Part shown: positions 9,876 through 18,320 of the stretch, piece by piece
How positions within the stretch are numbered: the first letter of the stretch is position 1
How the letters are laid out: each line of letters begins with the position of its first letter
Source of the DNA: an uncultured Saprospiraceae bacterium
Lineage (GTDB): Bacteria; Bacteroidota; Bacteroidia; Chitinophagales; Saprospiraceae
Reading direction: 5' to 3'
Length of the DNA: 64,000 nt
Assembly: GCA_964508135.1 (NCBI GenBank)
Contig: CAZDSU010000040.1
Location: 5 to 64,004 of the forward strand
Position numbers and translations under genes: made by a program
Notes under the pieces: generated by a model
Told to the model about the DNA's origin: nothing
The model's input: the letters and a program-made list of their open reading frames with translations, nothing else
Database searches by the model: none

Positions 9876-10298
9876 TTACAATACGGGCGGATGGCGATGA
9901 ATCTCTTGTAAATTAGCTCGCAGTTCAATCAACTTAGGGCGGTTCAGTTGCAATGCATCAATAGTCGCCCGTCCGGTGGGCGTGAGGCCGATTAGGTGGA
10001 GCGGATCGGTGTCCCAAGCAAAATGTTCCTGCCATTTTTGTTTGCGTGGGTTAAAGAGCGAAACGGTCAAGCCCGTGACTTCATCAATTGCCGTTGTTTT
10101 ATTGTACTTGTGGGAATTACAGCCCCTGCAGCAATTAGCAGCGTTTTCAAGTACCGTTAAGCCACCATGGCTCTCTGGTATGATATGGTCCAACTCAAAA
10201 GATTGGGTGGAAAAAGCCGCTGGGCTGAGGCAATACTCGCACCGAAAATGGGCGAGCTTGGCAAGTTCGGTTTTGAGGTCAGTTAGCAGCTTGCTCAT
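9876..10298 (-). CDS. HNH endonuclease (small stand-alone type)
   Basis: 140 aa. The HNH core is CEYCLSPAAFSTQSFELDHIIPESHGGLTVLENAANCCRGCNSHK, followed by LFNPRKQKWQEHFAW...GLTPTGRATIDALQLN. This is a layout I recall from small cyanobacterial/Bacteroidota HNH proteins. Confidence 0.85.
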   Translation of the reverse strand: MSKLLTDLKTELAKLAHFRCEYCLSPAAFSTQSFELDHIIPESHGGLTVLENAANCCRGCNSHKYNKTTAIDEVTGLTVSLFNPRKQKWQEHFAWDTDPLHLIGLTPTGRATIDALQLNRPKLIELRANLQEIHRHPPVL

Positions 10299-10702
10299 GC
10301 AGCTATTGATTGGTTCAAGCCCAATTGTTCCATCAAGTCCTCCACAGAAATACCCCTGAGTCGAGAGAGTTCAATCATGGATTTTAGCCAGTCGGCATTG
10401 TGCCCTTCAGCCGTTTCGACCAATGCCAGCAATTCTTGATGTTCCGCTGGAGTGAGGCTTTCATTTTTAAGTTTGGCATTTAGCAAGTCATATCTGCGCT
10501 GGATTTTTACTTTCAGCGGTTCGTAGATTTTCTTCAACAGTTCTAGTTCCCGCTCGGTGGGCTTTGGTGCTTTTCGGCGGGCCAGCAAATACCCAAGCCT
10601 GTCCATGAACTTCTCCAAGTCCTCCGTCCCCATTTGGGTAGCCCCCTTCAAAAGGTCTTCAAAGCCAACTTTTACGCCTTTTTTGATTTCTATCGTTTGC
10701 AT
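10295..10702 (-). CDS. Hypothetical helical protein, upstream partner of the HNH endonuclease
   Basis: The ORF is 10295..10846. I take the start at the ATG complementing 10700-10702 (MQTIEIKKGVKV...), because a -7 box lies 20 nt upstream and the longer N-terminus looks non-coding. Its stop overlaps the HNH start by 4 nt (ATGA). I recognise no catalytic motif. Confidence 0.6.
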   Translation of the reverse strand: MQTIEIKKGVKVGFEDLLKGATQMGTEDLEKFMDRLGYLLARRKAPKPTERELELLKKIYEPLKVKIQRRYDLLNAKLKNESLTPAEHQELLALVETAEGHNADWLKSMIELSRLRGISVEDLMEQLGLNQSIAA

Positions 10703-10721
10703 TGAAAAGTTATTTATAGGC

Positions 10722-10729
10722 CAAAAATA
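10722..10729 (-). promoter_or_regulatory. Candidate -7 promoter box for the partner/HNH cassette
   Basis: The minus strand reads TATTTTTG (TAnnTTTG), 19 nt upstream of the ATG at 10702. Confidence 0.4.
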
Positions 10730-10855
10730 GGTTTTTTTTAAAATAAAATCTGCGTTTACCCACCCATTCCGTTTCATCCGCATCCGCATCCTCCTCACTG
10801 GTTCATCATCAAAACCAATCCCGCCCCCACATGTTAAATATCCCATTCAAAATTC

Positions 10856-10910: not shown

Positions 10911-13796
<2,886 letters not shown>

Positions 13797-13816
13797 GCGT
13801 GGCCTTTTATTTGCAT

Positions 13817-13874
13817 GGGTTGACGGATTTCGCAGAATACATAGGCGAGTTTCGTCAACCCAATAGGTTTTTTT
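13817..13874 (+). terminator. Possible intrinsic terminator after gcvP
   Basis: The stem gggttgacggatttcgc (13817-13833) pairs with gcgagtttcgtcaaccc (13845-13861) with one bulge. A T7 run follows at 13868-13874 after a 6-nt spacer. Confidence 0.45.
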
Positions 13875-13951
13875 AGAAAAGGATTGGATTTATTGCCTTG
13901 AGGTGAAAGATTTTATGGATTAGGCATCAATTTTTGTAATTTCGAATTGTA

Positions 13952-15136
13952 ATGGCAGACAAAGCATACATAACACCAAACGTCCTAAAATGGGCAAGAG
14001 AATCGGCAAGAATTACCGAGGAGGTTGCTGCTGCCAAAGTTTCAATAAATATTGATAAGTTAAGGGAATGGGAAAATGGCACAAGTCAGCCAACGATAAG
14101 GCAAGCACAAACGCTTGCAAAAGCATATAAGCGCCCTTTTGCGCTGTTTTTTTTGCCGGATATCCCCAGGGACTTCCAACCATTGCAAGATTTTAGAAAG
14201 CCTCATTCGAAAGAATTAACAACGTCCTCTATTTTTATCATTCGTGAAATCCAACAAAAGCAGGCATGGATTAGTGAAGTATATTCTGATAACAATGAAG
14301 ATAAGCTGCCTTTTGTTGGAAGATTTTCTTTAAACGATAATCCAAAAATTGTTGCAGATGATATCTTATCTACTCTAAAAATAAATCCAGCAAACTACAA
14401 AGCTGAAAACCCAATAAGAGAGTGGATTGATGCGTCTGAATCTAATGGCATTTTTGTCTCTAGAACAAGTTTTATTCATTCTCGAATGAGACTAGATTCA
14501 GACGAAATACAAGGATTTGCCATCGCTGACCCATATGCACCATTTATTTTTATAAATTCTGACGATTGGAGTGCACCTCAGCTATTTACTTTAGTACACG
14601 AACTTGCCCACATTTGGATAGCAGCATCAGGTGTTTCAAATGAAATAGGGCCAGAACTAATCCAACGAGACAAGTTTAATCCAGTAGAGCTTTTTTGCAA
14701 CGAAGTTGCTGCTAACGCCCTCATTCCGAATGATATAATACTGAAAATTGACAGGTCTTTTTTTAAGGACTCTCAGGGAGTATTTAAGGCTGCTAAGAGT
14801 CTTAGTGTTAGCTCGTTTGCACTTTTAGTTAGAGCTTTAAATTTACATATTATTACACTTTCCTCTTATCAGGTTTTGAAAAAGCAAGCAGAAATTGATT
14901 ATGAAGCTTTCTTGAGCAGAGAGGCTGAAAAAAAAGAAAAACTCAAATTAAAGCAAAAAGAAAAACCAAGTGGCCCTAATTACTACTTGTTACGGCTCAA
15001 CAAAAATAGCAGGCTTTTTACACAAGTAGTTCTTGATGCATTAAGGAGCGGATTTGTTCAGCCTACTCAGGCCAGCTTATTACTAGGAACACCAGCTAAT
15101 AATTTTCATAAACTAGAAGCCCAGATTTACAAATGA
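13952..15136 (+). CDS. XRE-type HTH fused to an ImmA/IrrE (M78, DUF955) zinc metallopeptidase
   Basis: 394 aa. The N-terminal HTH is LKWARESARITEEVAAAKVSINIDKLREWENGTSQPTIRQAQTLAKAY. The HExxH motif is in FTLVHELAHIWI. The gene is visibly AT-rich compared with gcvP. Confidence 0.85.
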   Translation: MADKAYITPNVLKWARESARITEEVAAAKVSINIDKLREWENGTSQPTIRQAQTLAKAYKRPFALFFLPDIPRDFQPLQDFRKPHSKELTTSSIFIIREIQQKQAWISEVYSDNNEDKLPFVGRFSLNDNPKIVADDILSTLKINPANYKAENPIREWIDASESNGIFVSRTSFIHSRMRLDSDEIQGFAIADPYAPFIFINSDDWSAPQLFTLVHELAHIWIAASGVSNEIGPELIQRDKFNPVELFCNEVAANALIPNDIILKIDRSFFKDSQGVFKAAKSLSVSSFALLVRALNLHIITLSSYQVLKKQAEIDYEAFLSREAEKKEKLKLKQKEKPSGPNYYLLRLNKNSRLFTQVVLDALRSGFVQPTQASLLLGTPANNFHKLEAQIYK

Positions 15137-15654
15137 ACCAAGCAGTACATATCTATTGCATCGATGCCAACGTCCTTATTCAAGCTTGGCAAAAATATTA
15201 TGCTCCTGACATATGTCCTGATTACTGGGATATATTAAACGAGTTAGGAAGCCAAGGGCGGATTTTTATCCCTGAAGAGGTAAAAAATGAAATAGTTGTA
15301 CCAGACGATAAAGAAAAAACTGAAGACGACCTTTCCAAATGGTTAAAACGTAGCTCTATTCCTGTACATAAACCGACTGAGCAAGTCATAAAATGCTGGC
15401 AAAATATTCTTCAAGCGAATCCTTTACACCAACATTTGGTTGACAATATTAAGGGAAGGTCACTTGCAGACCCATGGGTTATTTCACATGCTTTAAGCGT
15501 AAAAGCTACTGTTGTAACCAAAGAAAATCTTGATATCGCTTTGAACACAAAAAGAATTAAAATCCCAAATGTTTGTAACAATATGGGCATTAGATGGATT
15601 GATGATTTTACTTTCGTAAAGGAGCTTGGTTTGAAGTTTTCATGTAGACTTTAA
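15133..15654 (+). CDS. DUF4411 family PIN-like nuclease-fold protein
   Basis: 173 aa with YCIDANVLIQAWQKYYAPDICPDYWD...ADPWVISHAL...ATVVTKE...IKIPNVCNNMGIRWIDDFTFVKELG, matching the DUF4411 pattern as I recall it. The start overlaps the upstream stop by 4 nt (ATGA). Confidence 0.75.
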   Translation: MNQAVHIYCIDANVLIQAWQKYYAPDICPDYWDILNELGSQGRIFIPEEVKNEIVVPDDKEKTEDDLSKWLKRSSIPVHKPTEQVIKCWQNILQANPLHQHLVDNIKGRSLADPWVISHALSVKATVVTKENLDIALNTKRIKIPNVCNNMGIRWIDDFTFVKELGLKFSCRL

Positions 15655-15900
15655 TCCATATTGCGCTAATACGGGTGTTTGCAGAAACCTAGTAACCCAG
15701 TTCCTGCAACTCTCACAGGCACTGCAACCCGCCCACTACAAAGTTCCATCAGCGGCCAATTAATCGCCCCCACTGGCGCAACATTTGTCACTTTCATTGA
15801 AAAACGGTACTGCTCGTTGATAGCTTTCCTATCATGCGGGCTTGGGTTTCGGCCTCTGGCCGCCGTGCGTAGGTCAGGTAGGTCAGCCGACATGGCCCAA

Positions 15901-16353
15901 TTATTTCAACGAAACCACTATAATCCCCTCGTCGTACCGCTTAAAATCAGCTTCGTTGTTGGTCAGAAGATTGGAAATGCCATTGATTTTCATGGCAGCG
16001 ACGATATTGCAGTCATGGACGGGTTTCCCTTGCACCTTGTATTTTTCTATCAACTGAAAGAGTTGCTTTGAAACCAAGTCGGTATCGTCGGCAATATTGA
16101 ATTGCGTAGTGAGTTTTTCCGTGTCAGCTACCAATTGTGCAGCATCGAAAGCACCTTGTTCGGCCAAAGCTCTTGACATTACCACCAAGTATTCCCGGAT
16201 GATTTGGCGGCTAATCCACAGTTCGAAACCTTGATGCAGGAAATCGTTCAGTTTGTTTTGAGCAGCAAGATGGAACGGGGAGTTCACCAAGCTGATGTAC
16301 GCCAGGATATTCGTGTCCACGAACAACCGTTTTTCACCTGCCGTCTTCGCCAT
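15901..16353 (-). CDS. vapC: PIN-domain ribonuclease toxin (VapC-like)
   Basis: 150 aa. The N-terminus is LFVDTNILAY (first acidic PIN residue). Later acidic positions are in IADDTD and VHDCNIVAAM...TNNEADF. The gene overlaps the upstream small gene by 20 nt. Confidence 0.82.
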   Translation of the reverse strand: MAKTAGEKRLFVDTNILAYISLVNSPFHLAAQNKLNDFLHQGFELWISRQIIREYLVVMSRALAEQGAFDAAQLVADTEKLTTQFNIADDTDLVSKQLFQLIEKYKVQGKPVHDCNIVAAMKINGISNLLTNNEADFKRYDEGIIVVSLK

Positions 16354-16579
16354 AAATCTCGGTTCTGCTAAAGGTTTGGGAAGGGTTCACGGGCACTTGA
16401 TAGGTAGGATGCCAGATAGTTTTTGGCTTGCTGCTGCGCTTCTTCGAACTTGTTTGTTGCGGTTTGGGCATCAATACCACCAGCACATCGTAGTCGCCAT
16501 TGGGCACGTTCTCGGCGACATGGATGCTCAACAGGCGGTCTTTCTTTGAAATTTGCGCTTTTGCGGCAATGGTTAACAT
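16334..16579 (-). CDS. Putative antitoxin of the PIN toxin (VapB-like)
   Basis: 81-aa ORF directly upstream of and overlapping vapC. The C-terminal tail SRTEIYGEDGR resembles tails I recall on small partners of PIN toxins. The assignment is mainly by position. Confidence 0.55.
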   Translation of the reverse strand: MLTIAAKAQISKKDRLLSIHVAENVPNGDYDVLVVLMPKPQQTSSKKRSSKPKTIWHPTYQVPVNPSQTFSRTEIYGEDGR

Positions 16580-16595
16580 GGATAGTTGTTTTTTA

Positions 16596-16603
16596 CAAAA
16601 ATA
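16596..16603 (-). promoter_or_regulatory. Candidate -7 promoter box for vapBC
   Basis: The minus strand reads TATTTTTG, 16 nt upstream of the ATG at 16579. Confidence 0.4.
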
Positions 16604-16625
16604 GCCGTTTTTCCTGATTTTGCAT

Positions 16626-16865
16626 TCAAAATGAGATATTGAGCGTTTTCATGTCCTCCTCCAGCTCTTCAATCCCGTAATGCACTGGGATTTTCCGCTT
16701 GGCGAGTTCTTCTTGAAACTGTACCCGGTGCAGCCCAGCCACTTTTGCTGCTTGGGCAAGCGTGAAGATTTCCATTTGGAAAAGCGAAATAGCAACACCC
16801 AGCCGAACCTGCGCTTCCGTGAGGCCCGAACTTTTTACAACAGAATCTGGCACTGTGATGACCAT
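16626..16865 (-). CDS. UPF0175 family antitoxin-like protein (orphan copy)
   Basis: The ORF is 16626..16952, and I take the start at the ATG complementing 16863-16865 (MVITVPDSVVKSSGLTEAQVRLGVAISLFQMEIFTLAQAAKVAGLHRVQFQEELAKRKIPVHYGIEELEEDMKTL). It is collinear with the UPF0175 protein at 60752..60994, sharing LGKAA-type, FQ.ELAKRKI and EE.E.DLKTL blocks. Confidence 0.75.
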   Translation of the reverse strand: MVITVPDSVVKSSGLTEAQVRLGVAISLFQMEIFTLAQAAKVAGLHRVQFQEELAKRKIPVHYGIEELEEDMKTLNISF

Positions 16866-17194
16866 GATGAGATTTGATTTTGGGTAAAAATAGGGGTTTT
16901 TGAGTAAATCCCAAAGGCTTGTCGAGCTAGAACACTCCATGCACCAAAGCATAAGCGCTTTTCGTTACGCTTGTGTTGCTTGTGAGGTATCGCATTTTGC
17001 GATTCCATGTCTCGACATTTTCTTAGCCTATGCAATTCCCCTCAAATCACCCCCTCCAGCACCTTCAAGTCCCCATTTTTCAGTCCGCCAGCCTTGGCTT
17101 TGGGTAAGAAGCGATCGGTGAGATTTTGAGGTCACGACACACATTATCCCTCGGCATTTATTGAACCTGCTCACAAGGAAGCGCCCTGTTTGCC

Positions 17195-17202
17195 TACTTT
17201 TG
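17195..17202 (+). promoter_or_regulatory. Candidate -7 promoter box for mvaD
   Basis: tacttttg lies 23 nt upstream of ATG 17226. Confidence 0.35.
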
Positions 17203-17225
17203 CCCCCGAACAAAATCAACAACGC

Positions 17226-18320
17226 ATGTCCACAACAGACTACAAAAACCCTCAACTCCTCCTCGAAACCGCCGACCTCGAACCTGGCGAAATCACTTGG
17301 CGCAGCCCAAGCAACCTCGCCATCGTGAAATATTGGGGCAAATACGGTGTGCAAATGCCGAAAAACCCCTCGCTGAGCCTGACCCTGAGCAGCTCGTTTA
17401 CGGAAACGCTGCTCGAATACCGCCCACGGGGGACCAGCGAGTCGGGCATTTCCCTCGAATTTTTCTTCCATGAAGAACCGAACGAGCCGTTCCGGGAGAA
17501 GCTGGTGAAGTACCTCGAAAGCGTGACGGACATCTTCCCATTCCTGCGCCAACTGGACTTGACCGTTTACAGCGGCAACTCGTTCCCGCACTCGGCGGGC
17601 ATCGCATCCTCGGCCTCGGCCATGAGCGCATTGGCACTATGCCTTTGCTCGCTGGAACACGAGCTGTTCGAGACGCTGGACGACGATGCGGCATTTGACC
17701 AAAAAGCATCTTACGTAGCAAGGTTGGGTTCTGGCAGCGCCTGCCGTTCCATTTTCCCAAAGGCAGCGCTTTGGGGCGAAACAGGCGACGTGAAAGGCTC
17801 GTCAGACCTGTTCGCCGTGCCGATGGGCGACGAGGTTCACACGGTTTTTGCCAATCTCCACGATGACATCCTGATTGCCAGCACGGCAGCCAAGAGCGTG
17901 AGCAGTCGGGCAGGGCATGGGCTGATGGAAAACCACCCCTTCGCCGAGGCCCGCTACGCCGATGCGAGGCGCAACCTGAGCCGCTTGATACCCGCCATGC
18001 GAAGCGGTGACTTGGAGGAGTTCGGGCGCATCGCCGAGAACGAGGCGCTGACCCTGCATGGGCTGATGATGAGCAGCAATCCATCGTTTATCCTGATGAA
18101 ACCGAACACGCTGGAAATGATTGAGCGGCTGCGCCAATACCGGGAGGAGACTAAGCATCCCGTTTATTTCAGCTTGGATGCTGGGCCGAATTTGCACTTG
18201 CTTTACCCGGGGGACATCATTCACGACGTTCGGGGTTTTATAGAGGAAGAATTGAAGCCGCTTTGCGAGAAGGGGACTTATTTACAGGATTGGGCGGGGG
18301 AAGGTCCGGCGCAAGTGTGA
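17226..18320 (+). CDS. mvaD: Diphosphomevalonate decarboxylase (mevalonate pathway)
   Basis: The ORF is 17190..18320, and I take the start at ATG 17226. It has the hallmark SPSNLAIVKYWGK block and the GHMP-kinase-fold motif NSFPHSAGIASSASAMSALA. Confidence 0.87.
   Translation: MSTTDYKNPQLLLETADLEPGEITWRSPSNLAIVKYWGKYGVQMPKNPSLSLTLSSSFTETLLEYRPRGTSESGISLEFFFHEEPNEPFREKLVKYLESVTDIFPFLRQLDLTVYSGNSFPHSAGIASSASAMSALALCLCSLEHELFETLDDDAAFDQKASYVARLGSGSACRSIFPKAALWGETGDVKGSSDLFAVPMGDEVHTVFANLHDDILIASTAAKSVSSRAGHGLMENHPFAEARYADARRNLSRLIPAMRSGDLEEFGRIAENEALTLHGLMMSSNPSFILMKPNTLEMIERLRQYREETKHPVYFSLDAGPNLHLLYPGDIIHDVRGFIEEELKPLCEKGTYLQDWAGEGPAQV

Follow-up and report, generated by a model that had tools for sequence, protein, structure and literature searches.

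What kind of system is encoded in the AT-rich islet (positions 13900–15660) downstream of gcvP? The islet lies in the stretch of DNA analysed here, a 64,000-nucleotide (nt) window of contig CAZDSU010000040.1 from an uncultured Saprospiraceae bacterium, and holds two open reading frames (ORFs), ORF1 and ORF2. An earlier reading made from the letters alone (the sequence-only reading) had described them as a helix-turn-helix (HTH) metalloprotease followed by a DUF4411 PIN-like gene and had put the two forward as the window's best candidate for an uncharacterised conflict system. We estimate at roughly 80% the probability that we are dealing with a type II toxin–antitoxin (TA) cassette of the VapBC52 family, self-contained and acquired horizontally, that works like VapBC52. 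It is a further member of a known family, a mobile TA cassette that can be annotated as VapBC52-like or RosmerTA-like. The basis consists of homology, conserved catalytic and cleavage-site residues, obligate pairing and mobile-cassette behaviour. Toxicity, tRNA targeting, neutralisation through two interfaces and self-cleavage at F81–R82 would be expected by homology.

Homology of the pair to VapBC52

The sequence-only reading knew of no function established by experiment for such a pair, which no longer holds. A comparative analysis of 2009 predicted a TA system, giving Rv2515c as an example of a COG2856–Xre fusion linked to PIN toxins, and also proposed a three-component derepressor model. 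In 2017 (Matelska), DUF4411.1 was placed downstream of HTH–DUF955 fusions and again predicted to be part of a TA system. A 2019 study, as cited in PMC13273310, described Rv2514c–Rv2515c as a functional TA pair. Finally, the Mycobacterium tuberculosis VapB52–VapC52 complex (Rv2515c/Rv2514c; PDB 9VZY, also 9VZZ) was solved and characterised in Nucleic Acids Research in 2026 (PMC13273310).

According to that study, VapC52 has a PIN fold and is a tRNase that cuts the anticodon or variable loop; phage tRNAs are among those cleaved. VapB52 consists of an HTH N-terminal domain (NTD), a middle domain whose HExxH peptidase binds Zn, and a C-terminal domain (CTD) of four helices. It binds the toxin dimer in a 1:2 VapB52:VapC52 complex, in which the NTD is needed for binding and the CTD occludes the active site. 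Single-stranded DNA (ssDNA) induces an HExxH-dependent self-cleavage of VapB52, probably at a conserved 'FR' motif, by which the NTD is released. In the inactive state, residue C229 caps the zinc at its fourth site, an arrangement named the 'cysteine switch' (PMC13273310).

Both proteins of the window pair are homologous to their VapBC52 counterparts over the full length, and the order, antitoxin then toxin, is the same; the TA or conflict-system reading is upheld. For ORF2, Pfam gives DUF4411 at residues 8–169 (E 1.4e-40), with a weak PIN match underneath (E 2e-3). Residues 3–166 match chain D of PDB 9VZY ('DUF4411 family protein', E 2.8e-12), and the pairwise comparison with VapC52 gives 27% identity (E 2e-20). 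The toxin is alike in family (DUF4411 PIN), in its catalytic Asp and in three further acidic residues: D11 (15163–15165), which aligns with catalytic D6 of VapC52, together with E53, D113 and E131, is invariant in 78 sequences, and all four positions are acidic in VapC52. The AlphaFold2 (AF2) model of ORF2 is confident (predicted local distance difference test, pLDDT, 88; predicted template-modelling score, pTM, 0.85), and its nearest folds are VapC toxins of solved VapBC complexes and PAE2754, at target-normalised TM-scores of ≤0.70. ORF2 is thus confidently predicted to have the VapC fold.

The antitoxin also corresponds part by part. ORF1 matches Pfam HTH_3 at residues 12–65 (E 6.8e-6) and Peptidase_M78 at residues 187–294 (E 1.5e-9), so that Pfam supports every domain call in the HTH, M78 (HExxH) and DUF4411 architecture originally proposed for the pair. 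In a PDB sequence search, residues 9–388 align with residues 4–383 of 9VZY chain A (393 amino acids, aa; annotated 'HTH cro/C1-type domain-containing protein') with E 1.5e-28, and BLASTP against VapB52 gives 26% identity at E 6e-36. The two antitoxins are alike in length (~390 aa) and in their succession of HTH NTD, FR linker motif, M78 HExxH with its Glu ligand, and helical CTD. The HTH domain is the best-conserved block of the alignment with VapB52. The C-terminal block is very strongly conserved within the family, with invariant G341, P342 and Y345 and, further on, L377, L378, G379 and T380. Weaker matches connect ORF1 to PADLOC capP (E 4e-10, residues 175–326) and, in the PDB search, to IrrE (E 0.025); NCBIfam has no specific model for ORF1 or ORF2. 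The AF2 model of ORF1, built from a shallow alignment (76–83% identity), is poor (pLDDT 61), and its Foldseek matches are weak, namely IrrE (E 5e-3) and HTH domains, with no 9VZY in a fold library extending to April 2026.

Conservation of single residues was followed in a close set (ORF1 aligned with VapB52 and 74 close relatives from genomic loci), in a diverse set (ORF1 with 132 full-length representatives at 31–69% identity, 133 sequences in all) and in 75 multi-phylum genomic relatives. H216, E217, H220 and E246 of ORF1 align with H216, E217, H220 and E245 of VapB52 and are invariant across relatives. Three residues after the zinc-ligand Glu, both proteins have a conserved Cys (C249, aligned with C248 of VapB52), which is present in 131 of the 133 diverse sequences. 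All six VapB52 residues that are numbered in the paper meet the expected residue types, and the register of the alignment is therefore valid. R82 is invariant in the close (75/75) and diverse (133/133) sets and is found in 73 of the 75 multi-phylum relatives, the other two having gaps; position 81 is F, L or Y. F81–R82 aligns with F75–R76, the probable self-cleavage site of VapB52.

We propose that ORF1 and ORF2 form one bicistron expressed from the cassette's own promoter, whose translation would be coupled through the ATGA overlap. ORF2 would be a Mg-dependent PIN endoribonuclease, most likely a tRNase by homology to VapC52, causing growth arrest when free. The full-length homology to the crystal complex suggests that ORF1 binds ORF2 directly, its HTH domain anchoring on the toxin dimer and its CTD occluding the active site. 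Upon a stress signal, the zinc peptidase of ORF1 would cut the linker at F81–R82, the toxin-binding domain would be lost and the nuclease freed. The trigger is ssDNA in VapB52; for ORF1, ssDNA arising during phage replication or after DNA damage is one candidate, and a different signal would be another. The earlier label 'protease-gated nuclease' remains a fair shorthand for such a scheme, but the gating differs from that of ImmA and IrrE because VapB52 cleaves itself and not a separate repressor or the nuclease.

Two further systems resemble the pair in part. Canonical VapBC modules also have a PIN/VapC-fold toxin, an upstream antitoxin gene and overlapping genes; their VapB, however, is a small protein (~8–13 kDa) of the AbrB, RHH, Phd or MerR type that is degraded by host proteases, whereas ORF1 is a 45-kDa, 394-aa multidomain antitoxin with its own protease. 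RosmerTA (RmrT/RmrA) combines a Zn-peptidase antitoxin with a variable toxin and acts in phage defence, and its antitoxin node has been linked to PIN-like domains (Millman et al. 2022; Ernits et al. 2023). Like the window pair, it is a two-gene TA system whose antitoxin carries an HTH and an ImmA/M78 Zn-peptidase, and ORF1 meets at least eight of the PADLOC RmrA models with E values from 1e-12 to 1e-17 (best 1.3e-17, residues 9–312). In contrast, PADLOC does not recognise ORF2 as an RmrT toxin family. In addition, RmrA is described as promiscuous and its gene order as variable (58% toxin first), whereas the family in the window is faithful to DUF4411 and always has the antitoxin first.

Serine and cysteine types of the antitoxin

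The main difference from the characterised system concerns position 229, where ORF1 has Ser in place of the zinc-capping Cys of VapB52. The host differs as well, being a Bacteroidota (Saprospiraceae-like) groundwater organism. Ser is present at this position in 75/75 sequences of the close set and in 120 of the 133 diverse sequences (Thr in 5, Cys in none). Among the 75 multi-phylum relatives it is found in 68, again with no Cys, so that Cys at position 229 occurs in none of the ~280 relatives examined. A Cys anywhere in the surrounding loop was found in 2 of the 132 representatives. The actinobacterial VapB52 clade reads G-L-C-D in 6/6 sequences (VapB52 and the five fetched, L248–L252, from Mycolicibacterium and Actinomycetota metagenome-assembled genomes, MAGs), and the non-actinobacterial relatives (L086–L245) read G-[VIL]-S-[ND], with Pro in the Bdellovibrionales members.

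In these alignments, the antitoxin family falls into two types: Cys in the actinobacterial members and Ser in all others examined, among them the window pair. By the same comparison, the cysteine switch belongs to the characterised member and its clade, whereas the family defined by the gene pairing does not have it in general. Therefore, activation by ssDNA is not simply transferable to the window pair. With Ser replacing the zinc-capping Cys in the subfamily of ORF1, the means of holding the peptidase inactive must differ. IrrE, too, lacks a Cys at the switch position in the PDB-search alignment, and a PprI–ssDNA complex has been solved (8SLN); sensing of ssDNA without a thiol switch is thus conceivable.

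The Ser-type HTH–M78/DUF4411 modules have an invariant Ser and have kept the catalytic site and the FR motif. It is a tentative suggestion, to which we give somewhat less than an even chance, that they have an undescribed means of inactivation or trigger and hence a distinct sensing mode. Possibilities include zinc or redox availability as in IrrE, ssDNA without a thiol switch as in PprI, and a phage protein. The interest that the sequence-only reading attached to the pair depended on its being uncharacterised and is superseded; the residual interest lies in the split between the Ser and Cys types.

Pairing, mobility and the host junction

The family is large. ORF2 has 1482 homologues at E ≤ 1e-3 in a 90%-cluster database, with 84–88% identity in other Bacteroidota and 64–66% in sequences from Ignavibacteriales and Alphaproteobacteria, and ORF1 has 2669 homologues at E ≤ 1e-5. 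An exhaustive representative search for the antitoxin (50% identity clusters) gave 6365 clusters at E ≤ 1e-3, of which 760 pass the stricter limit of E ≤ 1e-30.

The pairing of HTH–M78 with DUF4411 is near-obligate, always with the antitoxin first. An HTH–M78 gene lies directly upstream of the DUF4411 relative at 78 of 80 species-representative loci, the other two being cut by the contig end. In the reverse search, which started from the diverse antitoxin alignment and covered 80 loci from Bacteroidota, Ignavibacteriota, Bdellovibrionota, Planctomycetota, Chloroflexota, Proteobacteria, Spirochaetota and other phyla, DUF4411 is immediately downstream in 75 of the 78 loci with room for it. DUF4411 likewise follows the antitoxin gene in the five actinobacterial VapB52 relatives. 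The overlap of the two genes by ATGA, already noticed in the sequence-only reading, recurs as the same 4-nt overlap in 72 of 78 related loci, and suggests translational coupling of ORF1 and ORF2.

Three loci depart from this layout. At L200 the DUF4411 ORF is displaced by ~240 nt, possibly by a frameshift or insertion. At L193 (Ignavibacteriaceae) and L217 (Rhodoferax) the antitoxin gene is complete but is not followed by a DUF4411 ORF; either the antitoxin is an orphan there or its partner may have been replaced.

The base composition of the islet is distinct from that of its surroundings. The sequence-only reading had seen by eye a drop in GC content from the gcvP terminator to the end of the second gene, and the measured values agree: GC is 0.366 in the islet against a window mean of 0.52. 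This is the minimum of the window, equalled by only 0.04% of its 1760-nt stretches. GC at third codon positions (GC3) is 0.29–0.31 in ORF1 and ORF2, compared with a reference range of 0.66–0.76, including 0.76 in gcvP and 0.70 in mvaD. The gcvP gene ends at 13796, and a hairpin with a T run lies between it and the AT-rich stretch. GC drops from 0.56–0.63 to 0.35–0.40 after this hairpin (from 0.56 to 0.39 immediately behind it) and remains low until ~15660. The hairpin belongs to the host side, and the AT-rich cassette has its left limit there. Minus-strand ORFs within the islet are all short, and an Rfam scan of 13500–17300 gave no match. An insertion is not accounted for by any flanking direct repeat, integrase or transposase. 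In related loci the module has a GC of 0.31–0.39 (two outliers ≤0.48) while the flanks range from 0.31 to 0.58.

The surroundings of the pair are not constant. The 254 nearest and next-nearest neighbours of related loci fall into 229 clusters. Relatives were found on 51 plasmids, 26 of them conjugative, and the antitoxin family in 3 of 50,697 phage records. The two plasmid copies that were looked at carry the annotations 'XRE family transcriptional regulator' followed by 'DUF4411 family protein'; one plasmid copy adjoins a TIR-domain gene and another a DNA methyltransferase gene.

At the gcvP side, the pair is not a syntenic core partner, since none of the 80 nearest gcvP loci carries it or shares any neighbour with the window; the sequence-only reading had implied as much. 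The best gcvP matches are from Saprospiraceae MAGs at ≤72% identity. The comparison of the downstream junction proposed with the sequence-only reading therefore gives absence of the pair from these loci, but no definable empty site. Metagenome scans for the host-side terminator and for the gcvP C-terminus, aimed at closer host relatives, found nothing. The groundwater-metagenome organism recurs at low depth in four other groundwater or drinking-water runs; no cassette-free allele was present in the contigs from these four, and contig X4, from another groundwater sample, spans the same gcvP–ORF1 junction.

Both ends of the cassette show possible signals. DNA homology among related cassettes starts ~55 nt upstream of the ORF1 ATG, and an exact TAnnTTTG ending 4–11 nt before the ATG, most often 8 nt, occurs in 49 of 73 relatives. 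The putative −7 box of the window is so close to the ATG that it suggests a leaderless or near-leaderless ORF1 mRNA. A scan for consensus sigma-70 promoters upstream of ORF1 gave nothing, as expected for Bacteroidota. In a subset of cassettes from unrelated genomes (L087, L089, L152 and 11 further loci), a conserved element of ~40 nt, GAAGCACGAACCGCCAACACGGGTTTTGCGTCAGGCGGGGT, with an imperfect inverted repeat (CCGCC...GGCGG), directly follows the DUF4411 stop codon. A search of 2.16 Mb of fetched loci with its 21-mer, allowing ≤4 mismatches, gave 14 occurrences, each of them immediately behind a module. The tentative trace in the window has a local alignment score of 24, above 99.15% of random window segments. 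This element could be a cassette end, a recombination site or a 3′ untranslated-region element. An integron attC site was considered for it and rejected, as core sites are not visible.

Positions 15655–15900 form a 246-nt spacer (GC ~0.50) between the convergent DUF4411 and VapC genes. It has no Rfam match, its 75-aa minus-strand ORF has no Pfam match, and no gene is called there in the independent contig L081.

Further TA-like genes lie around gcvP (Table 1), so that accessory TA modules flank it on both sides. The genes at 15901–16952, in the interval between gcvP and mvaD, have a GC3 of 0.53–0.61, higher than that of the islet and lower than that of the core genes. Beyond the opposite end of gcvP, a second TA-like bicistron occupies 9876–10846 on the minus strand, with a GC of 0.45–0.48, below the housekeeping level. 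The pairing of its small ORF with an HNH gene seems to recur, as plasmid pP880101 of Rippkaea orientalis PCC 8801 carries a 41%-identical homologue of the small ORF, then an IS4 insertion, then an HNH gene on the same strand. This bicistron appears uncharacterised and may be more novel than the DUF4411 pair.

Table 1. Features of the islet and of the regions flanking gcvP, in window positions
Feature	Position	Strand	Remarks
HNH endonuclease, 140 aa	9876..10298	-	Pfam HNH 4e-12; PADLOC PtuB-like 1e-12, PtuA partner absent
Small helical ORF, 135–183 aa	10295..10702 or ..10846	-	No Pfam match; overlaps HNH gene by ATGA
gcvP terminator-like hairpin and T run	13816..13862	+	Arms 13816–13833 and 13845–13862, 18 nt; loop 11 nt
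Putative Bacteroidota-type −7 box, TAATTTCG	13937..13944	+	Consensus TAnnTTTG, one mismatch; ends 7 nt before ORF1 ATG
ORF1	13952..15136	+	394 aa; VapB52-like / RmrA-like antitoxin (HTH, linker, M78, C-terminal helical domain)
N-terminal HTH domain (~residues 9–68)	13976..14155	+	Cro/C1 type; VapB52 NTD homologue; Pfam HTH_3
FR motif F81–R82 ('LQDFRK')	14192..14197	+	NTD–peptidase linker; aligns with VapB52 F75–R76
M78 / IrrE-like zinc-peptidase domain (residues 187–294)	14510..14833	+	Pfam
HExxH (HELAH)	14597–14611	+	Zinc ligands H216, H220
Ser229 (TCA)	14636..14638	+	At VapB52 C229 'cysteine switch' position
Third zinc ligand E246	14687–14689	+	Aligns with VapB52 E245
C-terminal helical domain (~residues 340–394)	14969..15133	+	VapB52 CTD homologue; 9VZY_A alignment reaches residue 388
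ATGA	15133..15136	+	ORF2 start codon overlapping ORF1 stop codon
ORF2	15133..15654	+	173 aa; DUF4411 PIN-fold toxin, VapC52-like
Tentative degenerate 3′ element remnant	15664..15682	+	Relatives' consensus ...GCACGAACCGCCAACACGGGTTTTGC... after toxin stop codon
VapC PIN toxin	15901..16353	-	PIN E 5e-10; convergent with ORF2
81-aa ORF	16334..16579	-	No match; overlaps VapC gene by 20 nt; probably VapC antitoxin
UPF0175 antitoxin-like gene	16626..16865 or ..16952	-	E 1.6e-19; usual COG2405/DUF3368 PIN partner absent

Role of the module and competing explanations

Several findings weigh against a VapBC52-like cassette. Identity between the window pair and VapBC52 is only 26–27%. The three-domain arrangement of ORF1 is taken from sequence alignment, its AF2 model being poor. 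N146 of ORF2 is an invariant Asn where VapC52 has Asp, and no model of PADLOC v2.0.0 is matched by ORF2 at E ≤ 0.01. The window antitoxin does not have the cysteine switch, and no other gating element has been described. Next to related loci there are chiefly housekeeping genes and few HTH, restriction–modification, IetA-like AAA, FokI-like or transposase genes. In addition, protection against phage was obtained only when VapC52 was over-expressed alone, and there was none with VapB52 co-expressed (PMC13273310); defence by an intact module is thus unproven, VapBC52 included.

Biologically, the cassette may act in the addiction of a plasmid or chromosome, in abortive infection or in both ways. 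A dedicated anti-phage abortive infection system, that is, a RosmerTA type with a PIN toxin, would use the same molecular parts: infection is sensed, the antitoxin destroys itself, and the cell is killed or arrested by the tRNase before phages can be released. The RmrA matches of ORF1 down to E 1e-17, the phage defence by RosmerTA and its PIN-like association, the cleavage of phage tRNAs by VapC52, the triggering of VapB52 by ssDNA and the plasmid copies beside a TIR-domain or DNA methyltransferase gene are all consistent with such a role. The missing PADLOC match of ORF2 and the lack of protection upon co-expression of VapB52 and VapC52 argue against it, as does the genomic context. The neighbourhood check proposed with the sequence-only reading revealed no defence-island enrichment: among 122 nearest neighbours at 61 related loci only a handful are defence-like, and phage records rarely contain the family. 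We consider a dedicated defence role possible and somewhat doubtful.

A purely selfish addiction or stabilisation module appears unlikely. Here, loss of the module would kill the cell, and the peptidase would only set antitoxin turnover and sense no external signal. The 51 plasmid copies, 26 of them on conjugative plasmids, would fit this explanation, and so would the solitary chromosomal copies, which lie among unrelated housekeeping genes and keep a foreign GC, and the two or three other TA-like modules in the gcvP flanks. However, strict conservation of the full peptidase site, the FR motif and Ser229 in different phyla speaks for catalysis that is regulated, and the homologue VapB52 is activated by ssDNA.

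It is very improbable that the pair is a derepressor like ImmA/ImmR, IrrE/DdrO or CapP/CapH, in which the M78 protein cuts a separate HTH repressor, other genes (those of a mobile element, a damage regulon or a CBASS operon) are thereby switched on, and DUF4411 is regulated cargo. The M78 domain is common to IrrE, ImmA and CapP, and this is the three-component model of 2009. ImmA (with ImmR, ICEBs1) and IrrE (PprI; with DdrO, Deinococcus) share the M78 HExxH fold with an E-x-x-C-N motif; unlike ORF1, they cut a separate repressor to derepress a regulon or mobile element, and have neither an adjacent PIN toxin nor a toxin-occluding CTD. CapP, from the cyclic oligonucleotide-based antiphage signalling system (CBASS), has an IrrE-like M78 peptidase, and ssDNA-activated proteolysis is the model for VapB52. 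But CapP cuts the separate HTH repressor CapH and controls the CBASS operon, whereas ORF1 is substrate and protease in one polypeptide, CBASS genes are absent and the cysteine switch is lacking. Beside the pair there is no separate small HTH repressor, integrase, CBASS or mobile-element gene, the neighbours being gcvP and the convergent VapC gene. Neighbours are not conserved in relatives either, and hence there is no constant third partner. The fusion of the HTH to the protease, the lack of a constant third gene, and the direct binding and self-cleavage described for VapBC52 make this explanation unlikely. An ImmA/ImmR-type mobile-element switch was rejected, as no element is present.

Least probable of all is an inactive remnant of a decaying acquired cassette, to which the degenerate 3′ element and the one mismatch in the −7 box might point: both ORFs are full length with native N-termini, every family-invariant residue is kept, which makes decay unlikely, and the same junction exists in another groundwater sample.

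A VapBC52-like TA cassette in this window matters little in itself; the wider survey has some value as regards the extent of the family, the Ser/Cys split and a gap in PADLOC. PADLOC v2 recognises the antitoxin but not the DUF4411 toxin, so that such loci go uncalled. What was characterised in a single pathogen proves to be one case of a discrete family of 760 clusters, spread over many phyla and plasmids, in which the two genes are faithfully inherited together. Ser-type modules appear to make up its bulk, comprising essentially all examined relatives outside Actinomycetota, and the published gating mechanism is thus not transferable to most of the family. Among the sequences examined, gating by the cysteine switch is confined to the actinobacterial clade.

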